A stretch of 35,564 nt of DNA from contig JBAXXI010000005.1 of assembly GCA_037127955.1 (NCBI GenBank), positions 1 through 35,564 of the forward strand, in the 5' to 3' direction. The position numbers and the translations under genes were made by a program. The stretch is from Candidatus Berkelbacteria bacterium. GTDB taxonomy: Bacteria > Patescibacteriota > UBA1384 > UBA12157. Positions 3,519-35,564 of this stretch are shown here, piece by piece (the stretch's first letter is position 1; the number at the start of each line of letters is the position of its first letter). The notes under the pieces are model-generated. The model had not been told where the DNA came from, ran no database searches, and saw only the letters and a list, made by a program, of their open reading frames with translations.

Positions 3519-5357
3519 TTAAACTCGGTCGATTAGTTCTTCTGGCACCTCTGACAAGAATCGCGATGGCATATTGTACTGCAAACCGCCGTACAACAAT
3601 CGACACTGAGCATAGGTCAAATATAGCCGTTCGCGAGCGCGAGTCATACCAACATAACAAAGTCGGCGTTCCTCCTCGAGCTCACTTGGATCAACCAACG
3701 AATTAGCATGCGGAAACAAACCTTCTTCCAACCCAACCATAAAAACAATTGGGTATTCCAAACCTTTAGCATTATGAAGCGTCATCATAGTCACGGCCTC
3801 GGCATCGCGATCAAGCGCGTCGATATCTGAAGCCAGCGCTACCTGCTCTAAAAACTGCTCTAAATTTTCACTCTTGGCAGCTACCGATTTCAATTCTTCA
3901 ATATTTTCCCACCGACTTTCCCCTTCTTCAGTGCCGTCTAAAATATAATTTTTATAACCAATTTCACGCAAGATTAAATCAATCAATTCACCAACTTTTA
4001 GCTTTTGTGCTTCTTCGCGGAAATAATCCACCATTTCAAAAAACTTTTTAATTTTCGGATTTTCCAAATTCATTTCTTTGGCCGATTTTGCGCCAATCCC
4101 ACGAGTCGGCACGTTGATAATTCGCTTTAAAGAAACTTTATCTTTAGTATTAACGATCAATTTTAAATAGGCCAAAATATCTTTAACTTCGCGACGTTCG
4201 TAGAACCTGAGTGCGCCGATTAATCGATAAGGAATCCGGTGCTGGAGAAAAACTTCTTCTAAAATACGACTTTGGGCGTTAGTTCGGTACAAAACCACAA
4301 AATCATTTAACGAATACGAACGATGCAAAGACTCGATTTCCATTTGAATAAATTCAACTTCCTCAATTTCGTTTTTAGCTTCATAAACCGTGGCCAACAT
4401 GCCAGCCTCATTTTCGGTCCACAAAACTTTGCTGGATCGTAATGTATTTTTTTCAATCACATGTTGAGCCGCGGCCAAAATATTTTGCGTCGAACGATAG
4501 TTTTGCTCCATTTTAATCACTTTCGCCTGCGGATAATCTTTTTCAAAATCCAAAATGTTTTTAAAATTAGCGCCGCGAAACCCGTAAATCGCCTGAAAAT
4601 CATCGCCGACCACACAAATATTTTTATTTTTGCTAGCCAACAAATTTACCAATCTGTACTGAGTATGGTTTGTATCCTGGTACTCATCGATTAAAATATA
4701 TTGAAAAAGATCCTGGTAGCGCGCCAAAGTATTTTTGTCTTTTTCAAAAAGTTCCACGGTTTTCAAAAGCAAATCGTCAAAATCCAGGGCGTTCGCATCT
4801 TTCAACTCTTTTTCATAACGTGTATAAACTTTTTGCACCACTTCACCAAAATAACCGCGGCCGTATTTTAAATAAGCCGTGGCCGAAATCATTTCGTTTT
4901 TAGCGCCCGAAATAAAATTGCGAATACTTTTCGGATTGTACTGTTTTTTATCAATTTCTAGTGCGTCCATGGCATTTTTTACAACCGACAAAGATTCTTC
5001 GCTGTCGTAAATGCTAAAACTGCGCGTATAGCCAAGCTGATCAATTTCTCGACGCAAAATCTTAACACAAACCGAGTGAAAAGTACCCATCCAAGGCAAT
5101 TTAGCGAAAAGCACATGATCGGTCGTCGACAATAATTTGGTAATCCTGGCCACCATTTCTTGCGAAGCTTTGTTGGTAAAAGTCACGGCCAAAATATTTT
5201 CCGGATGAACTTTTTTCTCTTCAATTAAATAAGCGATCCGGTGGGTCAAAGCCTTAGTTTTACCCGAACCGGCGCCGGCTAAAATCAAAACCGGCCCTTC
5301 GGTCGTTACGACAGCCTCGCGCTGGGCACTGTTTAATCCATATAAAATATCTATCAT
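3519..5357 (-). CDS. pcrA: ATP-dependent DNA helicase PcrA/UvrD
   Basis: LAGAGSGKT, AVTFTNKA, IDEYQDTN, VGDDFQAIYGFRGA, EQNYRST, TLHNAKGLEY, EEERRLCYVGMTRA. Confidence 0.97.
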   Translation of the reverse strand: MIDILYGLNSAQREAVVTTEGPVLILAGAGSGKTKALTHRIAYLIEEKKVHPENILAVTFTNKASQEMVARITKLLSTTDHVLFAKLPWMGTFHSVCVKILRREIDQLGYTRSFSIYDSEESLSVVKNAMDALEIDKKQYNPKSIRNFISGAKNEMISATAYLKYGRGYFGEVVQKVYTRYEKELKDANALDFDDLLLKTVELFEKDKNTLARYQDLFQYILIDEYQDTNHTQYRLVNLLASKNKNICVVGDDFQAIYGFRGANFKNILDFEKDYPQAKVIKMEQNYRSTQNILAAAQHVIEKNTLRSSKVLWTENEAGMLATVYEAKNEIEEVEFIQMEIESLHRSYSLNDFVVLYRTNAQSRILEEVFLQHRIPYRLIGALRFYERREVKDILAYLKLIVNTKDKVSLKRIINVPTRGIGAKSAKEMNLENPKIKKFFEMVDYFREEAQKLKVGELIDLILREIGYKNYILDGTEEGESRWENIEELKSVAAKSENLEQFLEQVALASDIDALDRDAEAVTMMTLHNAKGLEYPIVFMVGLEEGLFPHANSLVDPSELEEERRLCYVGMTRARERLYLTYAQCRLLYGGLQYNMPSRFLSEVPEELIDRV

Positions 5358-20962: not shown

Positions 20963-22165
20963 TTACTTCGAAACTTCAAACCAAGTAGTTTTACCCGCCT
21001 TAACAGTCACTGGAGAACCCGACAAATCAATTTCTTGGTTTTGATCGGCAATTGTCTTATCGCCAATAGAAATTGCATTCTGCTCTAGTAAGCGGCGAAT
21101 ATCACCATTACTGCGCTCACCGGCAAAACAAACCTTCAATATTTCCATGATTGTGTCTTTGTCTTTGCCAATTTGAACTTTTGGAATATCAGTTGGAGTT
21201 TGTTTTTGACTAAAAGTTTTAATAAACCAATCTTTTTCGGCTTCGGCTTCGTCTTTTGAATAAAACATTTCGACAATAGTTTCGGCTAAAATCATTTTGA
21301 TATCGCGGGGATTAGCGCCACTTTTAAGTTGTTTTTCGTATTCGGCAATTTTATCCATTTCAACTCGAGTCACATGAATAAAATAGTCCATGATCAAATT
21401 GTCAGGAATACTCATAAGTTTCCCAAACATATCACGAGCTGAATCTGTTAAATTGATAGTATTACCCCAACTTGAACTCATTTTACGACCATCTGTACCT
21501 GGCAAAATACTCGTCATGACGAAATCTTGTGGCTCTTGACCATAATGAGCCTGTAAAGCTCTACCCGACAAAAGATTAAATCTCTGATCAGTTCCACCAA
21601 GCTCAACATCAGCTTTAACCGCCACCGAATCATAACCCTGCATTAACGGGTACAAAACTTCGCGAAGCGAAATATGTTTGCCGGCATCCAAGCGCTTTTT
21701 GATATTTTCACGTGCAATAAAATCAGAAATTGAAAAAATATTGGCCTGTTCGGTAATCTCTTTATACCCAAGTTTAGAAAGCCATTCTGAATTATTACGA
21801 ACTTCAACCTGGTCAAGATCCAAAATTTTACCAGCTTGAGCCACATAACTCTTCATATTTTCCTGAACGATTTCTTCTGAAAGCATCGGTCTTTCGCTAT
21901 CTTTATCAGAAGTATCACCAATAATCCCAGTAAAATCACCGATTAAAAAAACCACTTTATGGCCCAATTTCTGAAAATCGCGAAGCTTAAAAAGACAAAC
22001 GGCACGACCAAGATGAATATTCGGGCTGGTTGGATCAATACCTAATTTAATCCGAAGCTGTTTACCAGAACCCAAGGCCTTTTCTAAATGCTCACGATTT
22101 ATCACCTCGGTAACACCACGGGTTAAAAGTTCTTCGATTGCTTTTTTATCAGTATTAATCAACAT
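20963..22165 (-). CDS. tyrS: Tyrosine--tRNA ligase (housekeeping copy)
   Basis: IKLGIDPT, HLGR, GDFT, YPLMQGYD, GGTDQRFN, KMSSS, C-terminal S4-like domain. Confidence 0.97.
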   Translation of the reverse strand: MLINTDKKAIEELLTRGVTEVINREHLEKALGSGKQLRIKLGIDPTSPNIHLGRAVCLFKLRDFQKLGHKVVFLIGDFTGIIGDTSDKDSERPMLSEEIVQENMKSYVAQAGKILDLDQVEVRNNSEWLSKLGYKEITEQANIFSISDFIARENIKKRLDAGKHISLREVLYPLMQGYDSVAVKADVELGGTDQRFNLLSGRALQAHYGQEPQDFVMTSILPGTDGRKMSSSWGNTINLTDSARDMFGKLMSIPDNLIMDYFIHVTRVEMDKIAEYEKQLKSGANPRDIKMILAETIVEMFYSKDEAEAEKDWFIKTFSQKQTPTDIPKVQIGKDKDTIMEILKVCFAGERSNGDIRRLLEQNAISIGDKTIADQNQEIDLSGSPVTVKAGKTTWFEVSK

Positions 22166-23753: not shown

Positions 23754-23840
23754 TGGTGCTGAGAGAGAGATTCGAACTTTCGTAGGCACAAGGCCGCCTG
23801 ATTTACAGTCAGGTGCGTTTGACCGCTCCGCCATCTCAGC
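23754..23840 (-). tRNA. tRNA-Tyr (GTA)
   Basis: Acceptor GCTGAGA/TCTCAGC-A-CCA; D arm GCG..GG..CGC; anticodon arm CCTGA-CTGTAAA-TCAGG; long variable arm; T loop TTCGAAT. Confidence 0.95.
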
Positions 23841-26905: not shown

Positions 26906-28312
26906 TTATATACAAGCATTTTTAAATATTTGAATCAGCACATCTTTTCGTGAGCCAATACTATTATCGACTGAAATAGTTTTTAGAAACAGTTCAATTG
27001 CATTTGATCGACATTGATTATATATTTTTCTGGATATAAACCCCGGGAAATCAAATTCCTTTGGATCTAACCCAAACTTCAATAAACCGATAGACGCTCT
27101 TTCAATTTCTAAATCTAAAAGTTTATGCGCTACTTCAGTCTTCAAATTACCATTTTTATCACGACAATGCAACCGAGCAAAAAGGCCATAATTCATAGCC
27201 TGTATCTTGTCATCAACAACAATATCGAAAGGTAAAAGCTCTTCATGATTTTGTTGCGACCACAATAATCTACCAAGGTAGAACATTAACATGGCCGCGT
27301 CATCCTCAAGTGTTGGTTGCATTGGCAGTGCCCGAAACTCAACAATCAAGATATTTTTGCCATCTCGAAGAAATTTTAACCTTGCATCTCGCCAATTTAA
27401 ACCTATAGCAACATCAAAGGCATGCTCTCTGACAACAGGATCCTGACCGATAATAAAAGGATGCGCCAATAATTGGTCAAAATAATCATATACATCTTTA
27501 TAATAAGCCTTTGGCATTCCGATTCTTGTTAATAAGCCATCTCCAACTTCCCGTGTTGTTCTAACATCATGACTAATTTGCCAGGCTGGCAAACGGATAT
27601 CTGCTATCCCGGTCATTTTATAGTCAAGGAACATCGCATTCGTACCGAAAGCAGTCAATAGTGGCGAAAGCATCAAGGAGCGGTTAAGCTTATCTATCGC
27701 GTCTTTAATGTGCAAACAATCAATATTGAAATGTACAGCATTAAAAAGACTGATACAAGATGGATCGGCCACGTCGACTATTTCTTCTAAACCAAATGTA
27801 GTGTCTAACGGATGTCGTCGATTTCTTCTATGGAAATCCATACTTAACTCGTATTTAAAACACCCTTTAGTCACGGCCACTTCAGAAAGAGGTACAAACG
27901 GGTTGCTACCAGATCTCAAGACGCGGGAACCAGACTGATCTGCCAAACGGCCCAACAAGCTCTCTTTAAGACGATAATCGTCAATTAAGAGATTTAACTC
28001 TTTCCCTAAAAGATTAACTGGCCCTGTCCATAATTCAATTTGCGCGGCGCCCAACTCTTTATCAAAAATCGATGGGTCCTGGGCAATAATAGAATCTCTG
28101 ACAGATTGATCGGCCTGCGAATAAGAAGAAGTTAGTAAAGAATACTCGCTCTCCATACCCACTTTGTAAACACCTGGTTTGGCCACAAAATCGTCTAAAC
28201 TCAAACTGATACGCTTAGCTTCAGCAATAAAAGTTTGTTGCATTTCTAATTCAAAAGGAGAATTAAATCTACTCTGAACCATGTTCATGTTTGGTTTATA
28301 ACCCTTTTTCAT
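26906..28312 (-). CDS. Glutamate--cysteine ligase (GCS2)-family carboxylate-amine ligase
   Basis: KVGMESEY, ELGAAQIEL, AVHFNI, NWRDARLK, VEFRALPMQPT; ATG 28312 after AGGGGG. Confidence 0.82.
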   Translation of the reverse strand: MKKGYKPNMNMVQSRFNSPFELEMQQTFIAEAKRISLSLDDFVAKPGVYKVGMESEYSLLTSSYSQADQSVRDSIIAQDPSIFDKELGAAQIELWTGPVNLLGKELNLLIDDYRLKESLLGRLADQSGSRVLRSGSNPFVPLSEVAVTKGCFKYELSMDFHRRNRRHPLDTTFGLEEIVDVADPSCISLFNAVHFNIDCLHIKDAIDKLNRSLMLSPLLTAFGTNAMFLDYKMTGIADIRLPAWQISHDVRTTREVGDGLLTRIGMPKAYYKDVYDYFDQLLAHPFIIGQDPVVREHAFDVAIGLNWRDARLKFLRDGKNILIVEFRALPMQPTLEDDAAMLMFYLGRLLWSQQNHEELLPFDIVVDDKIQAMNYGLFARLHCRDKNGNLKTEVAHKLLDLEIERASIGLLKFGLDPKEFDFPGFISRKIYNQCRSNAIELFLKTISVDNSIGSRKDVLIQIFKNACI

Positions 28313-28322
28313 AATGTTCCCC

Positions 28323-29627
28323 CTACGAACACATTGTGATTTGAACAAATTGCCGCTTACCTACACGTAAAACAAAAGTTTTACTTTGCGGAAATAATGA
28401 AGAAACTTCGGTAATCTTTGAAGTTTCCTTTTCAACGACCACCTTAACAGAACCGGATTCAATTTGTCTTTTGGCCTCACTTCTTGTCTTGGCGCAACCA
28501 GATAAAGTCAGAATGTCCACCCAGTCCTTCACATTATTCATGTCAATTTCTAAGACGGCCATATCTTCTGGTAAATGTTTTTTTGAAAATAATTCAATAA
28601 AACTATTTTCAGCCTCGACAGCAATCTCATGAGATCCGGCAATCATAGTCACGATCACTCTCGCGAGCAAACGTTTCACTAACATTGGGTTAACCGATCC
28701 GGAATTCATAAAATCAGAAATTTTAAGCCATTCCTCATTTGTGATATCAGTCAATAATTTAAAGTATTCCTCCATAATCGCGTCCGGTATAGACATAATC
28801 TTACCGAAAATTTCAGATGGAGAGTCAGTCAAAGCAATAAAATTGCCTGCACTTTTACTCATTTTTTGACCATTACCATTTGTACCTTGTAAGATTGGTG
28901 TTGTAATACCAATCTGCGGTTCCTTGCCAGCGCTATGCGTAATCCTTTTAACATCCATAAAATTTAATAATTGATCGTTTCCGCCAAGTTCAATTTCTGA
29001 TTCAAGTACACACGAATCAATACCCATAAGAGTAGAATATAATAACTCTGCTCGAGTCACAGATTCACGGTTACGAAAATCATCACGTTGCATAGCCGAA
29101 CTAACAGTTTGTTTACTAAGTATTTGTAAAAAATCAAATAACTTATAATTTTCTAACCACTCACTATTATAACGGATCTCAGCTTTATTCAAATCAATTA
29201 AAAATTTTATCTGGTCGCAATAGCTTTCCATGTTAGACATGATTTCATCCTGTGTTAACACTGGTCTATTCATAATCCGACCGGTTGGATCGCCAATAGA
29301 AGCGGTAAAATCACCGATTAGAAAAATTATATGATGACCCATCTGCTGAAAACGTCTTAATAGAATCACCGGAACAATATGCCCCAGATGAATCGCGCTA
29401 CCAGTTGGATCTATACCATATTTTACTCTGATCGGTCTACCTGTTTCCTTAGAACGCAAAAGTTTGTGCGCCAATCTCTCTTCGTCAGTAATATTTGCGA
29501 TTTTTGGCCGCAAAAGTTCAAACTGCTGTTGAGCGTCAAAACCACTCAAGTCTACAAGAGTCTGAGCCAACCTTGTCTCTAATTTGTTCAAAAAATCTTG
29601 AACCGTTGAAAGAATATTTGTATTCAT
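28323..29627 (-). CDS. tyrS: Second tyrosine--tRNA ligase-like protein (TyrRS2)
   Basis: VKYGIDPT, HLGH, GDFTASIGDPTGR, YSTLMGID, GGNDQ, KMSKS, S4-like C-terminus ending VGKRQF. Confidence 0.9.
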   Translation of the reverse strand: MNTNILSTVQDFLNKLETRLAQTLVDLSGFDAQQQFELLRPKIANITDEERLAHKLLRSKETGRPIRVKYGIDPTGSAIHLGHIVPVILLRRFQQMGHHIIFLIGDFTASIGDPTGRIMNRPVLTQDEIMSNMESYCDQIKFLIDLNKAEIRYNSEWLENYKLFDFLQILSKQTVSSAMQRDDFRNRESVTRAELLYSTLMGIDSCVLESEIELGGNDQLLNFMDVKRITHSAGKEPQIGITTPILQGTNGNGQKMSKSAGNFIALTDSPSEIFGKIMSIPDAIMEEYFKLLTDITNEEWLKISDFMNSGSVNPMLVKRLLARVIVTMIAGSHEIAVEAENSFIELFSKKHLPEDMAVLEIDMNNVKDWVDILTLSGCAKTRSEAKRQIESGSVKVVVEKETSKITEVSSLFPQSKTFVLRVGKRQFVQITMCS

Positions 29628-29742
29628 GGAATACCCCCTTAATAAATTTTTAAGTTACACTTAAATGGTTAATAACCTTTTAAGTAGTACATTATTAAAT
29701 AACATTTTTTTTAATAAATGTCAAGAGAAAAAACGTATTTGA

Positions 29743-29771
29743 TTGACAAAATCTATAAAAAGGTTTTTAAT
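29743..29771 (+). promoter_or_regulatory. Sigma70-type promoter for the His-leader operon
   Basis: TTGACA (29743-29748), 17 bp, TTTAAT (29766-29771); a divergent TTGACA lies at 29724-29719 on the minus strand. Confidence 0.6.
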
Positions 29772-29804
29772 TATAAATAGATATTAAATATTATTAATAA
29801 AATT

Positions 29805-29870
29805 ATGATAAATAAAATTATTTCAAATTTACATCATCATGTAACACCACGCTGCTGGGTTACTTTTTGA
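29805..29870 (+). CDS. Putative histidine leader peptide MINKIISNLHHHVTPRCWVTF
   Basis: 21-codon ORF read by hand; CAT-CAT-CAT at 29832-29840; lies upstream of an operon ending in hisS; no clear SD. Confidence 0.7.
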   Translation: MINKIISNLHHHVTPRCWVTF

Positions 29871-29925
29871 TGTTTTAAAATAATTTTATAAAACACTAGT
29901 AAGTAGCCTGCCAGGGCTATTTTTT
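29841..29925 (+). promoter_or_regulatory. Transcription attenuator (1:2 protector, 2:3 antiterminator, 3:4 terminator)
   Basis: 1:2 GTAAC(A)CCA/TGGGTTAC; 2:3 GC(T)GGGTTACTT (29854-29865)/AAGTAGCCTGC (29901-29911); 3:4 AGTAGCCT-gcca-GGGCTATT plus T tract. Confidence 0.75.
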
Positions 29926-29982
29926 GTTTACAAAAATCAGCGATCAACGATCAATTTTTTGTTTACAAAAATCCGCGATCAA
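29919..29982. repeat. 29-bp direct repeat (28/29 identical) with near-palindromic core
   Basis: ATTTTTTGTTTACAAAAATC[A/C]GCGATCAA at 29919-29947 and 29954-29982. Confidence 0.9.
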
Positions 29983-30049
29983 AAAAATACTTTAGTTTAG
30001 AAAATCTTTTAATCTAAACTAAAACACGCACCTTAAAAAGGAGAAATCG

Positions 30050-30742
30050 ATGAAACAAGACCTATTCTCGCGTATCAAAGAACTGAGTTGTGTAACAAAA
30101 ATCAGTAATTTTTTCCCTCAAGAAAATCAAATTTTTGATTTTATCTTTTTTGTCTGTCCCAGATTCACTGGTAATGGCCTAAAAATAAATAAGCATAAAA
30201 CCGGATTTACCGCTAATTACAGGGAAGGAATTAGTGAATATTCAAAGGTAAGATTCCAAATGGTTAAAAATTTTATGGACCAGATTAACACAATTGGCAT
30301 TAACTACACCGTCAATACTATTTTTGCCGCTGCCGATTCTATATTACTATTCCCTATTCCAGCCGAACCTCCTTCTACACCCTCGGAAAACGATATTCCA
30401 GGTGATTTTAAACTGATTTCAAACCTTAATATTTATAGAAATCATTTTCAAACATTTGGCCAAATCTACAGACAAGAGCCTTGGAAAAATACACCAAACT
30501 GGGCATTAAAAATTGAATACGATAGACTTACCGAAATTATACCCAGTCACACTCTAGAAGAAATCAAGGAAGATTTTATTGCCAGATGTTTTGCCGGCTT
30601 TGCCCTTGACGGAATTATTTTAAAAAAAGGTCTATTTGGCACCAACCCAATTATTTTAGGAGTTGAAAGTAAAGGTGTCAGTGTACTTCAAAACTCTGCC
30701 CTTGAGCGAAAAGATTGGATTCCGGTCATCGATCTCTGCTAA
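30050..30742 (+). CDS. Hypothetical protein, alpha/beta Rossmann-like pattern
   Basis: AAGGAG SD; motifs FIFFVCPRF, TIFAAAD, GFALDG, IPVIDL. Confidence 0.75.
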   Translation: MKQDLFSRIKELSCVTKISNFFPQENQIFDFIFFVCPRFTGNGLKINKHKTGFTANYREGISEYSKVRFQMVKNFMDQINTIGINYTVNTIFAAADSILLFPIPAEPPSTPSENDIPGDFKLISNLNIYRNHFQTFGQIYRQEPWKNTPNWALKIEYDRLTEIIPSHTLEEIKEDFIARCFAGFALDGIILKKGLFGTNPIILGVESKGVSVLQNSALERKDWIPVIDLC

Positions 30743-30795
30743 TTTATGGGGAGGTTCGCCTCCCCATATTCTTCAAATTATTTAAAAGGAAAATT

Positions 30796-31542
30796 ATGAC
30801 TAAAAAATTAATTAAACAACTTAATGAAATCAATGATCAACAAAATGGACAAATAAATATTTTGTTTGATTGGGAGTGTCCACCAAGATTTATAGATTAT
30901 AAAAATAAACGAGAATTTGTTAATTTTGATGTGGACTTAAATAAAATATTTGCTCAACGAAAAATTGATAATTTTACAGAAATTCCGCGAACCATAATCA
31001 ATAAAAAAACCGATCTAGAAGTACTTAGGTTGATCAAAGATAATCGAATAAAATTTCAATATTATAAATTCATTGCGGATACAAATCTTGAATTAGTTCA
31101 AACAAAAAATAAGACACAAGCTAAACAAAAATTTTATGAATTTAAAAAAGTCCTAGAACAGAAAACTCTAAAATATCCTGTCAAAATTTCATTTTGGCTT
31201 TTTTCAGACTTTTTAAAAACAAAAAAATTATTTAAAAAATATAAAGAAATCTATAAAGTGTGGGTAGATAAAATTGAAAATGAAACAAGATACCAAAAAA
31301 TCTGGCAAAAACAGATTGAAAAAACCAAAAATCACATGGGGCTAAAAGATTCGTTAAAAATAAAAGAAATTGCCAAACGCACGATTGCTTCATATGCTGC
31401 CGAAGGTGCTATTTTTGAAATTTTAGAAACAAAAAATGAAAACTATATTTGGCTAAATTCTGCCGAAACAGACCAACAATCCATTAATACAACAAACTTA
31501 GCCCGCAAAGAAAAAATGATAATAATTTTTCCAAAAAATTAA
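30796..31542 (+). CDS. Hypothetical protein, possible distant paralogue of the upstream gene
   Basis: ATG 30796 after AAAGGA; motifs ILFDWECPPRF, KFIADTN, SYAAEG, MIIIFP. Confidence 0.75.
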   Translation: MTKKLIKQLNEINDQQNGQINILFDWECPPRFIDYKNKREFVNFDVDLNKIFAQRKIDNFTEIPRTIINKKTDLEVLRLIKDNRIKFQYYKFIADTNLELVQTKNKTQAKQKFYEFKKVLEQKTLKYPVKISFWLFSDFLKTKKLFKKYKEIYKVWVDKIENETRYQKIWQKQIEKTKNHMGLKDSLKIKEIAKRTIASYAAEGAIFEILETKNENYIWLNSAETDQQSINTTNLARKEKMIIIFPKN

Positions 31543-31591
31543 TTTGCCAGTGAGCTTGCGCTTGCGGTACAATACCTATATAGGAGAAAAA

Positions 31592-32947
31592 ATGCAAGAA
31601 AATAATACAACCAAAATTAATCCTCGTTTATTATCTGGTTTCAAAGATTTTTTACCAAAACAGAAAAATCAACGTGATTGGTTAATCAATCAGATCAAAA
31701 CTGTTTATGAATCCTTTGGTTTTCAACCACTTGAAACGCCAGTTTTAGAGTACGCCGATATTTTAACCGGTAAGTATGGCGAAGAAGCCAATATGATGAT
31801 GTATCGTTTTACCGATCAAGGTAAACGCGATGTAGCCATGCGTTACGATTTGACTATTCCGTTTGCTCGCATCATTGCCCAATATCCTGAACTACCCAAA
31901 CCTTTTAAACGCTATCAAATCGCTCCGGTCTGGCGGTCCGACAGCCCGCAAGCCGGCCGATACCGAGAGTTTTACCAGTTTGACGCCGATATCGCCGGTT
32001 CAGCTAGCATGTTGGCCGACAGCGAAATTATCGAAATTATTTATCGCTCGATGATTAAAATCGGGGTCAAGAATTTTAATATTCGCCTAAATAATCGAAA
32101 AATTCTCAATGGACTATTAGCTTACGCCGACATTAATCAAACCAAAGCCAATCAAGTTTTTCAAATGATCGACAAAATCGAAAAAATTTCTAAAGAAAAT
32201 TTTAGAAAAATTTTAACCGAAATTGTGGGTACTGATTCATATAAAAAAATCCTGGATTTTATTCAAATTAAAGGTTCAAATACTGAAATTATCGCACAAC
32301 TCAAACACCTGTTTTTAGCCAATGAAATTGGCTTAGCAGGCATCAAAGAAATTGAAGAAATTCTCGCTAATTTAGAGTTAAATAAAATCGAATTAAATAA
32401 AATTAAAATTGATCTTTCGATCGCCCGCGGCCTCGACTACTACACTGGCACGGTTTTCGAAACCGTACTTTTGGACGCGCCGGAATTTGGCAGTATATTT
32501 TCCGGCGGCCGCTATAATGAATTGATCGGGCTTTTTACCAACACCGATATACCCGCCATTGGCACCTCAGTTGGTATCGACCGACTTTTTACGGCCATGG
32601 AAAAACTCGATTTGTTGCCAAACAATAATAATTCGGCTAGTGCCCTGGTAACCGTTTTTCCGGAAAATCCGCAAGATTCACTCAAGGTTGCTCAAAAATT
32701 ACGTGAATCAGGCCTTAAAATCGAAACTTATTTGGGCGATAAAACTAATCTTAAAAATCAATTGAGTTATGCTGATAAACTCTCTATTCCGGTCGTAATC
32801 ATTACTTTTCCGGATCAAATTGAAAAAGATAATTATATTGTCAAAAAAATGGGCCAAAACTTTGGCGAAACCGAACAAATCGAAACAAATTTTGCTAAAT
32901 TAGCTGAAACGATTAAAAAAATTACCACAAAAAAAGACGAAAGTTAA
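31592..32947 (+). CDS. hisS: Histidine--tRNA ligase
   Basis: GFKDFLP, MRYDLTIPFAR, WRSDSPQAGRYREFYQFDAD, RGLDYYTG, GGRY, GIDRL, anticodon-binding domain; ATG 31592 after AGGAG. Confidence 0.98.
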   Translation: MQENNTTKINPRLLSGFKDFLPKQKNQRDWLINQIKTVYESFGFQPLETPVLEYADILTGKYGEEANMMMYRFTDQGKRDVAMRYDLTIPFARIIAQYPELPKPFKRYQIAPVWRSDSPQAGRYREFYQFDADIAGSASMLADSEIIEIIYRSMIKIGVKNFNIRLNNRKILNGLLAYADINQTKANQVFQMIDKIEKISKENFRKILTEIVGTDSYKKILDFIQIKGSNTEIIAQLKHLFLANEIGLAGIKEIEEILANLELNKIELNKIKIDLSIARGLDYYTGTVFETVLLDAPEFGSIFSGGRYNELIGLFTNTDIPAIGTSVGIDRLFTAMEKLDLLPNNNNSASALVTVFPENPQDSLKVAQKLRESGLKIETYLGDKTNLKNQLSYADKLSIPVVIITFPDQIEKDNYIVKKMGQNFGETEQIETNFAKLAETIKKITTKKDES

Positions 32948-34140: not shown

Positions 34141-35424
34141 ATGGAAAGAACTATAATCAAAGATTTAAAAGATAAAATCGGCAAAGAAGTTTCACTTTTT
34201 GGTCGGATTTTAAATATTCGTAAACTCGGCCAAATCACTTTTATTGTACTTCAAGATTACTCTGGCACAGTTCAAACTGTCTGGGAAACCGAAGTTAAAG
34301 CCAGTGTGGGCGAAGCAGTTAAAATTCAAGGAACAGTTAAGGCTGACACCAGAAGCAAAAGCGGTGTCGAGCTCGGCGGATCACACCTTGAAATTATCTC
34401 AACCAATATCGAAGAACTTCCTTACGATTTTGCTGGTAAAGACCTAAATCTTCAATTGAATACATTGTTAGATTTGCGCACCACTAGCCTTCGTCACCCA
34501 AAAGCCCAAGCAGTTTTCAAACTTTACGATTTGCTCTTGGAAGGTTATGAAAAAACCATGCGAGCCGAAGGTTTTACCGAAATCAAAACGCCAAAAATTA
34601 TCGAAACAGCCTCAGAAGGCGGCGCTAACTTTTTCAAAATTAAATATTTTGATCAAGATGCTTATTTAGCTCAAAGTCCACAACTTTATAAACAAATTAT
34701 GGTTGGGGTTTTTGAACGAGTTTTTGAAATTGGTTCAGTTTTCCGCGCCGAACCTCATTTTACCACTCGCCATATTAATGAATTCACCGGCCTAGACGCA
34801 GAAATGGGTTTTATTGAAAATTTTAAAGACGTTTCCAGTATGCTAAATAAAGTCATAAAAAACGTTTTTGACCACATAAGAGCCAATGGAAGTGAATATT
34901 TGGCAGCCTATAACGCAGAGATTCCGGAAGTACCAGAAAATATTCCATCAATCAAACTAGCTGATTTAAGAAAATTGGTCAAAGAAAAATACGATTATAC
35001 AATTCCTGAAACTACCGATATTGACCCTGAGGGCGAACGTTTAGCTTGCCGTTGGGCCAAAGAAGAGCACAACTCAGATTTTGTTTTTATCACTAATTAT
35101 TTTTGGAAAGACAAACCTTTTTACACTATGCCATCTGACGAAACTCAAAACGAGACCGAAGGCTTTGATCTTCTTTTCCGTGGCGTCGAGATCGCGACTG
35201 GTTCACAAAGAATTCATGACTACAAAATGTTAATTAAAAATATGGAAGCCAAAGGTGTTAAAGCAGCCGGACTCGAATCATATTTAGACACATTTAAATT
35301 CGCTATGCCACCTCACGGCGGCTGGGGCCTTGGTTCAGAACGCATTATTCAATTGATTTTAGGCCTAGGCAGTATCAAAGAAGCTGTTCTCTTTCCGCGC
35401 GATGTCAAACGACTAAACCCATAA
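34141..35424 (+). CDS. aspS: Aspartate--tRNA ligase, short archaeal/eukaryal type, probably non-discriminating
   Basis: OB-fold N-terminus; EGGANFF, LAQSPQLYKQ, FRAEP..TTRH, GSQRIH, PPHGGWGLGSER, FPRD; no GAD insert. Confidence 0.95.
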   Translation: MERTIIKDLKDKIGKEVSLFGRILNIRKLGQITFIVLQDYSGTVQTVWETEVKASVGEAVKIQGTVKADTRSKSGVELGGSHLEIISTNIEELPYDFAGKDLNLQLNTLLDLRTTSLRHPKAQAVFKLYDLLLEGYEKTMRAEGFTEIKTPKIIETASEGGANFFKIKYFDQDAYLAQSPQLYKQIMVGVFERVFEIGSVFRAEPHFTTRHINEFTGLDAEMGFIENFKDVSSMLNKVIKNVFDHIRANGSEYLAAYNAEIPEVPENIPSIKLADLRKLVKEKYDYTIPETTDIDPEGERLACRWAKEEHNSDFVFITNYFWKDKPFYTMPSDETQNETEGFDLLFRGVEIATGSQRIHDYKMLIKNMEAKGVKAAGLESYLDTFKFAMPPHGGWGLGSERIIQLILGLGSIKEAVLFPRDVKRLNP

Positions 35425-35564
35425 TTTTCAAAACTTTGGAAATTTCCGCGCACGAAGTGCCATAATTTTCGTGAAAATTTCCGCGCACAAAGTGCCATAA
35501 TTTTCGTGAAAATTTCCGCGCACGAAGTGCCATAATTTTCGTGAAAATTTCCGCGCACGAAGTG
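35420..35564. repeat. 35-bp tandem repeat running off the window end
   Basis: CATAATTTTCGTGAAAATTTCCGCGCACGAAGTGC: degenerate copy 35420-35460, copies at 35461, 35496 and 35531; no spacers. Confidence 0.95.

Follow-up and report, generated by a model that had tools for sequence, protein, structure and literature searches.

Positions 1-35,564 of contig JBAXXI010000005.1 from a Candidatus Berkelbacteria bacterium, the whole stretch analysed here and hereafter called the window, belong to a Patescibacteria-type genome of 820 kb that is 94.9% complete. The subject of this report is a module in which two adjacent open reading frames (ORFs), ORF1 and ORF2, lie between a short leader with consecutive histidine (His) codons and hisS2, a gene for histidyl-tRNA synthetase (HisRS) (Table 1). 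A strong Shine-Dalgarno sequence precedes the start of ORF1. The frame of ORF2 is open from 30715, but translation plausibly begins at the ATG at 30796, which the Shine-Dalgarno sequence 'aaaagga' precedes. The real start of hisS2 is the ATG at 31592, on the strand of ORF1 and ORF2, and a candidate promoter of its own is located at 31544-31573. The hairpin between ORF1 and ORF2 has no T-run, is absent from the terminator predictions, and is a possible processing or stability element.

Table 1. Features of the module, with positions counted from the first letter of the window.
Feature	Position	Strand	Remark
Leader ORF MINKIISNLHHHVTPRCWVTF, 21 codons	29805..29870	+	Three consecutive His codons, CAT CAT CAT, at 29832-29840
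Attenuator terminator	29901..29930	+	Hairpin AAGTAGCCTGCCAGGGCTATTT (29901-29922 including the T-run)
ORF1, 230 amino acids (aa), 'A-type' subunit	30050..30742	+	Predicted fold like that in aminoacyl-tRNA synthetases (aaRSs) from class Ic and in cyclodipeptide synthases (CDPSs)
GC-rich hairpin GGGGAGG-TTCG-CCTCCCC	30748..30765	+	Between ORF1 and ORF2
ORF2, 248 aa, basic 'B-type' subunit	30796..31542	+	Predicted fold like that of CDPSs and tyrosyl-tRNA synthetase (TyrRS)
hisS2, histidyl-tRNA synthetase, 451 aa	31592..32947	+	TIGR00442, 392 bits

ORF1 and ORF2 match no Pfam or NCBIfam family. An initial annotation of this DNA had suggested by eye that the two proteins share an order of motifs, are paralogues, and found a new family with a Rossmann, class I aaRS-like fold that lacks HIGH and KMSKS; all of these points are borne out by the results below. 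The motifs are FFVCPRF, IFAAAD and GFALDG in ORF1, and DWECPPRF, FIADTN and SYAAEG in ORF2, and within each family no columns are better conserved. Columns that are invariant or nearly so are C36 P37 / A95 D96 / F184..D187 G188 in the ORF1 family (12 and 21 sequences) and C28 P29 P30 R31 / A94 D95 N97 / Y200 E203 G204 in the ORF2 family (19 and 35 sequences). The invariant set comprises C36, D96, W145, E156, R159, R179, D187, E206, Q214 and N215 for ORF1, and C28, A94, N97, H180, Y200, E203, G204 and R237 for ORF2. BLASTP detects no similarity between ORF1 and ORF2, and their relationship is visible to profiles alone. The two family profiles align with an hhalign E-value of 2.3e-4 (probability 44%) over 198 columns with the motifs in register, and the hidden Markov model (HMM) of each family weakly matches the other family. 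Because the profiles align end to end and the HMMs cross-match, ORF1 and ORF2 are distant paralogues. Together with the conserved columns, the same evidence places the shared motifs beyond chance.

A third subtype, a divergent ORF2-like protein, replaces ORF1 upstream in some lineages. The ORF2 family is strongly basic, with a median isoelectric point (pI) of 9.6 and a net charge of +16 (9.7 and +18 for ORF2 itself), and the ORF1 family has values of 7.6 and +1. Homologues in a metagenomic collection of 5.8 billion proteins number 13 for ORF1 and 19 for ORF2. The superfamily has 87 representatives among 1.8 billion proteins and is confined so far to Patescibacteria-like sequences; 31 distant representatives match no Pfam family at E ≤ 0.01. 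In the remote members P0094 and P0106, G-C-F-A-C stands for W-E-C-P-P-R and Y-A-A-Q-G for Y-A-A-E-G, and the Cys and the aromatic residue alone are universal. N-terminal 'long forms' of about 400-490 aa contain no Pfam domain. At least one of them, at locus L013, was rejected as an artefact of ORF calling, as its apparent extension overlaps a tRNA-His gene. No fused forms of 605-2000 aa were found, which is weak evidence. In the PDB, sequence searches that used the profile of either family or a long-form member returned nothing relevant. A literature search found no description of the ORF1/ORF2 family; the supplementary tables of the paper on the repressor HisR, which may list homologues from candidate phyla, were outside its scope.

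AlphaFold2 models built with the family alignments have a predicted local distance difference test (pLDDT) score of 94.3 and a predicted template modelling (pTM) score of 0.91 for ORF1, and 93.0 and 0.90 for ORF2. Both models adopt the catalytic fold of class Ic synthetases. Their nearest structures are CDPS, TyrRS and PvcA, with CDPSs closest to ORF2. Thus, ORF1 and ORF2 form a new family inside the class Ic aaRS/CDPS/PvcA fold group. Feature matches of ORF1 to a FERM domain in the ESM Atlas were discarded because the Atlas model is poor (pTM 0.18). The HIGH and KMSKS motifs are absent from both translations. PF00579 (tRNA-synt_1b) matches neither protein, although it gives the neighbouring TyrRS 208 bits in the same scan, and the Pfam DIT1_PvcA model matches neither family. 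A prediction of the complex of ORF1 and ORF2 scored 0.00, a value that says nothing either way about binding.

The conserved residues occur in the same order of structural elements in both models. A Cys is placed directly after strand 1, an Asp opens the helix after the next core strand, the long helix that leads to the last core strand contains an aromatic-x-x-acid motif, and past that strand comes an acid or amide. According to the available text of two papers on CDPSs (PMC5935735; PMC7613923), the catalytic set of these enzymes consists of an acyl-accepting Ser, a polarising Asp (Asp58), a Tyr/Glu pair and a cyclisation Tyr. Mapped by element order, the Ser appears to be replaced by Cys (C36 in 21 ORF1-type and C28 in 35 ORF2-type sequences, invariant in both). 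The Tyr/Glu position may correspond to Y200/E203 with i,i+3 spacing in ORF2-type proteins and to F184/D187 in ORF1-type proteins. By the same mapping, the last core strand is followed by N221/E224 (ORF2-type) and E206 (ORF1-type) and not by an invariant Tyr. None of 35 members matches the Pfam CDPS model at E ≤ 10. Because, by element order in the models, a Cys takes the place of the Ser and there is no cyclisation Tyr, the two proteins would be CDPS-like without being members of the CDPS family. The CDPS-like idea of the initial annotation thus stands for the fold and falls for membership.

The genomic neighbourhood of the pair was compared at 16 loci from species genomes and 37 from metagenomes. 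Locus L023, which is the window sequence, was left out, and loci at least 90% identical in the B-type protein were merged. Each of the 39 non-redundant clusters that result is Patescibacteria-like. In 28 of the 29 clusters that could be assessed, the gene immediately upstream of the ORF2-type gene encodes a partner paralogue, which is ORF1-type in 16 and divergent ORF2-like in 12. ORF1 and ORF2 are a conserved, co-transcribed pair. The order of the Patescibacteria tRNA-His module is a His attenuator with or without a HisR-like gene, an optional tRNA-His, the pair, and an optional hisS.

The His codons of the window leader are followed, still within the leader ORF, by segment 1 (GTAACACCA, 29841-29849) and segment 2 (CTGCTGGGTTACT, 29852-29864). 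The 5' arm of the terminator (29902-29914) can pair alternatively with segment 2 to form an antiterminator. This duplex has a predicted energy of -11.5 kcal/mol, which 1.3% of shuffled sequences equal or better, and the fold of the whole leader has a z-score of -5.2. In the leaders generally, the segment complementary to the 5' arm of the GC-rich terminator lies about 14 nt past the His codons. A ribosome stalled on the His codons would leave the antiterminator segment free, and a ribosome at the stop codon would cover it. Because this geometry is that of classical attenuation, the prediction is that scarcity of charged tRNA-His turns the genes of the pair ON. A search of Rfam found no match to His_leader or T-box in the whole window at the gathering threshold or in 29600-30100 at E ≤ 10. 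The literature search yielded no description of this attenuator, nor of the 3' tail of a repressor gene serving as a leader peptide.

The attenuator is conserved beyond the window. A His run and a terminator are present in all of 13 leaders delimited by hand. Antiterminator pairing is matched by no more than 3% of shuffles in 11 of them, and it is weak in L001, where 17% of shuffles are as good. In 12 of the 13, 61-88 nt separate the His run from the terminator. The exception is L016, where the automatic pick chose the wrong hairpin; for L009, the pick over-extended the terminator. Among six aligned leaders, 95.8% of the cells are paired over 12 antiterminator pairs, and 6 of the 12 pairs have changes on both sides. 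This is reached by none of 500 shuffles, and slid controls gave 36-62%. By automatic detection, 17 of 26 clusters have a His run with a terminator upstream of the pair, versus 18 of 173 control upstream regions, which still include the pair's own genes (Fisher p 3e-9).

The His codons are carried in two ways. The window and loci L002, L003, L005, L009 and L016, which have no repressor gene, contain a stand-alone short ORF with two or three His codons. In loci with a repressor gene, the codons are located in the C-terminal tail of its ORF, as in '...RLNSHHH...'. Such tail-borne codons are seen in the TrpR/HisR-like genes of L001, L004, L006, L007, L012, L014 and L015. In these loci, the full-length repressor ORF would double as the leader peptide. 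The stand-alone peptides of the window and L005 resemble the tails of HisR-like proteins. Eight of 16 genome loci and 10 of 26 clusters have a TrpR-family gene (PF01371) immediately upstream, and the window genome contains no PF01371 gene. According to PMC9413887, the histidine repressor HisR (YerC) is a TrpR-family protein that often heads his or histidine-transporter operons. The upstream PF01371 genes are HisR-like in that they belong to this family.

Other elements accompany some leaders. At L012 (about 4685-4930) and L014 (about 4660-4900), both of Saccharibacteria type, the attenuator is separated from the pair by an additional small ORF of roughly 60-80 codons and another hairpin. The window has two direct copies of TTTTTTGTTTACAAAAATC(A/C)GCGATCA at 29926-29990, in the interval from the terminator of the attenuator to ORF1. 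The near-palindrome TTTTTGT-TT-ACAAAAA is part of each copy, and the copies may serve as a site for protein binding. An 11-bp inverted repeat, TTTAGTTTAGA...TCTAAACTAAA, is located at about 29993-30030, just 5' of the ribosome-binding site of ORF1, and forms a hairpin in the predicted leader fold.

In 14 of 36 clusters, hisS is the next gene downstream of the pair and has the same orientation. The pair-linked hisS is the sole HisRS gene in four of the genomes checked, and it is a second copy in the window genome and in that of L010. hisS2 is 25-26% identical to the other HisRS of its genome (contig C12:15161-16432) and 31-48% identical to pair-linked HisRSs of other lineages. It is the enzyme on contig C12 that is orthologous to the HisRS of the relatives (54-66% identity). 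A genome of the same genus retains the second HisRS beside the same esterase gene and has neither pair nor leader, which suggests that the pair and leader are gained or lost as a unit.

The linkage to hisS permits a trivial explanation, namely that the pair is unrelated to histidine and only happens to lie between hisS and its leader. WWE3- and Woesebacteria-like genomes have their only HisRS gene downstream of the pair, and there the leader could serve hisS alone. However, the leader and/or a HisR-like gene precedes the pair without any hisS at many loci (e.g., L001, L002, L004-L007, L009, L012, L014, L024 and L030), and tRNA-His adjacency recurs across several lineages. We regard a bystander role as highly improbable. 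Alternatively, the pair could be a non-catalytic accessory or sensor of HisRS or tRNA-His, analogous to HisZ, a dead HisRS paralogue that has turned into a regulatory subunit. The loss of the ATP motifs, the shared operon with hisS and tRNA-His, and the basic character of one subunit are in keeping with such a function. It seems quite improbable in view of the invariant Cys, Asp and acidic residues, which both families keep at apparent active-site positions, and of the 22 of 36 clusters with no adjacent hisS.

The module is also enriched in tRNA-His genes. The 41 loci surveyed yielded 16 tRNA genes, 9 of them for tRNA-His and in 8 clusters, compared with 1 of 45 tRNA genes in the window genome (binomial p 3e-10). 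The tRNA-His genes lie on the strand of the module, just 5' of the pair or just after hisS. At L010 (644-3295), the pair, hisS and tRNA-His are followed by a long-form hisG, the gene for ATP phosphoribosyltransferase. An enzyme that adds G-1 to tRNA-His was considered and rejected, as the tRNA-His gene of the window genome and all 8 module-linked genes read encode both G-1 and C73. A missing step of canonical histidine biosynthesis is likewise unlikely because neither HisG (by tblastn), PF00977 (HisA/F) nor PF00815 (HisD) was found in the 94.9%-complete window genome.

The window genome lacks HisG, HisA/F and HisD, and the pair could be a tRNA-free enzyme for the salvage or conversion of histidine or a derivative. 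It would increase the histidine supply of an auxotroph, using the amino-acid pocket of its fold as PvcA and IsnA do. This explanation leaves unexplained the recurrent adjacency of tRNA-His genes and the high positive charge of the ORF2 family. Furthermore, neither family matches DIT1_PvcA, and the context names no candidate substrate. A tRNA-free role is rather unlikely, yet it is a rival to be taken seriously.

We propose, with a probability of about 0.5, that the pair is an enzyme, probably heteromeric, that acts on the aminoacylated end of tRNA-His via a covalent Cys thioester. This proposal draws on the fold, the conserved Cys, Asp and acidic residues, the basic charge of one subunit, and a genomic setting of tRNA-His, hisS and His-regulon elements. 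In the proposed mechanism, the ORF1 and ORF2 proteins would act jointly as a heteromer, and the basic ORF2-type subunit would dock the acceptor end of tRNA-His. The aminoacyl group, either histidyl or a wrongly attached residue, would then move to the invariant Cys as a thioester. The invariant Asp and the aromatic-x-x-acid motif would assist, like their apparent counterparts in CDPSs. Finally, the acyl group may be handed to water or to a second substrate; both the direction of transfer and the product are conjectural.

Several observations weigh against this proposal. The structural similarity is moderate (TM 0.45-0.54, with 5-14% sequence identity), and the Cys-for-Ser equivalence follows the order of secondary-structure elements along the chain, not a superposition of residues. 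The fold alone is no proof of tRNA use, since PvcA/IsnA have the same fold and bind a free amino acid. E203 is replaced by Gln in remote superfamily members. The leader went undetected in 9 of 26 clusters, and inspection by eye of L028, L029 and L034 showed no His run; L029 has a tRNA-His there instead. More than half of the clusters (22 of 36) have no downstream hisS. The module is patchy, with the ORF1 family present in none of 40 relatives searched, one of them of the same genus. Induction at low His-tRNA is also awkward for an enzyme that consumes His-tRNA.

This last point bears directly on a further alternative, in which the pair is a genuine CDPS, possibly split over two subunits. Such an enzyme would join the histidyl group of His-tRNA-His with the aminoacyl group of a second aminoacyl-tRNA to make cyclo(His-X), with hisS and tRNA-His as a dedicated supply. 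CDPSs are the nearest structures to ORF2, and a CDPS of a Parcubacteria bacterium that makes cyclo(His-Pro) and cyclo(His-Glu) is described in PMC7613923; PDB entry 7qau was included in the structure comparison. The second, module-linked HisRS of the window and L010 genomes also resembles what is sometimes seen in tRNA-dependent biosynthetic clusters. However, none of the 35 members matches the Pfam CDPS model even at E ≤ 10, Cys apparently stands for the acyl-accepting Ser, and the strictly conserved Tyr of cyclisation lacks an invariant counterpart. Activity as monomers is reported for CDPSs (PMC5935735), whereas here two paralogues travel together. In addition, an attenuator and a HisR-type repressor that induce the pair at tRNA-His scarcity would make a CDPS drain its limiting substrate. 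We consider a genuine CDPS unlikely. The initial annotation had also placed the genes under His attenuation with coupling to tRNA-His charging, had called for a survey of neighbouring aaRS genes, and had suggested, by comparison with CDPSs, that the pair may use His-tRNA or histidine. The predicted attenuator is conserved and covarying at the sequence level, and the survey revealed repeated hisS linkage as well as tRNA-His and HisR-like genes. Of the proposed role, the tie to tRNA-His charging is retained, and the consumption of His-tRNA fits poorly with genes that are ON at His-tRNA scarcity.

If the pair does act on the aminoacylated end of tRNA-His, roles in the supply or protection of His-tRNA-His would speculatively fit the regulation better than a CDPS role, because the genes are induced when His-tRNA is scarce. 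A tentative and rather long guess is a new quality or supply enzyme for tRNA-His that is heteromeric, CDPS-derived, thiol-based and induced by uncharged tRNA-His. It might work by trans-editing, in which wrong amino acids would be stripped from tRNA-His on behalf of a synthetase without an editing domain. Alternatively, it might work as a CDPS in reverse, in which histidine would be loaded onto tRNA-His without ATP from an activated or peptide-bound donor. Four independent genomic signals, namely the attenuator, the HisR-like gene, hisS and tRNA-His, point toward tRNA-His or histidine, which makes a pair without an assigned function directly testable. The analysis also documents a leader-peptide attenuator in ultra-small bacteria and identifies a second, module-linked HisRS in the window genome.

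The surroundings of the module contain further synthetase genes. To its left is a divergent TyrRS gene, and to its right are the esterase gene and a gene for aspartyl-tRNA synthetase. The window carries two TyrRS genes, at 20963-22165 (-) and 28323-29627 (-), that are 36% identical, with a tRNA-Tyr gene between them at 23754-23840. An ORF of 480 aa at 26906-28348 (-) shares 26 nt with the end of the TyrRS gene, and the two are probably an operon. This ORF has weak similarity to glutamate-cysteine ligase family 2 / YbdK carboxylate-amine ligase (E 0.002-0.003), below the cut-offs. An aaRS copy coupled to an odd ligase lies beside the His module. At 35349-35564, overlapping minus-strand ORFs share one repeated peptide (...RGNFHENYGTSCAEIF...), which indicates a tandem DNA repeat running past the end of the contig.

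Compared with known regulatory systems, the module combines two themes. The leader resembles the enterobacterial his leader (Rfam His_leader) in that a short ORF contains consecutive His codons and a 3' segment pairs with the 5' arm of the terminator. The spacing also fits ribosome stalling that leads to read-through at low His-tRNA. In contrast to the enterobacterial leader, it has no Rfam match, contains only two or three His codons and governs non-biosynthetic genes, and its 'leader peptide' is often the C-terminal tail of a HisR-like gene. The second theme is the HisR (YerC) regulon, in which, according to the text available of PMC9413887, the PF01371 gene is likewise first and directly upstream of the regulated genes. 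Unlike that regulon, the module places a CDPS-like pair under control, not his or transporter genes. The likeness is one of gene family and position, and the window genome has no such gene.

Among enzymes, TyrRS and tryptophanyl-tRNA synthetase (class Ic, tRNA-synt_1b) differ from the pair, which has no HIGH, KMSKS, anticodon-binding domain or Pfam match. Because all four are absent, the known route of ATP-dependent amino-acid activation is closed to the pair. PvcA, IsnA and Dit1 differ in another direction. The pair has no DIT1_PvcA match, its conserved residues are different, no partner gene of an isonitrile pathway is nearby, and isonitrile chemistry leaves the linkage to tRNA-His unexplained.

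The closest comparison is with the CDPSs (AlbC, YvmC, Rv2275, Nbra-CDPS and ParcuCDPS), with which the pair shares a class Ic aaRS-like Rossmann fold without HIGH and KMSKS. In AlbC, S37 is the acyl acceptor, Y178 and E182 hold the aminoacyl moiety, and Y202 serves in cyclisation. The pair differs in having no Pfam CDPS match and, by element-order mapping, in having Cys for Ser and no counterpart of the cyclisation Tyr. The spacing of the CDPS Tyr and Glu is i,i+4; it is i,i+3 in ORF2, and ORF1 has Phe and Asp. Moreover, the pair consists of two paralogues in a context of tRNA-His, hisS and His regulation, with predicted induction at His-tRNA scarcity. Proteins that resemble class Ic synthetases without the ATP-binding motifs have turned out twice before to have unexpected chemistry, in the CDPSs and in the isonitrile synthases, and ORF1 and ORF2 look like a third branch of this group.

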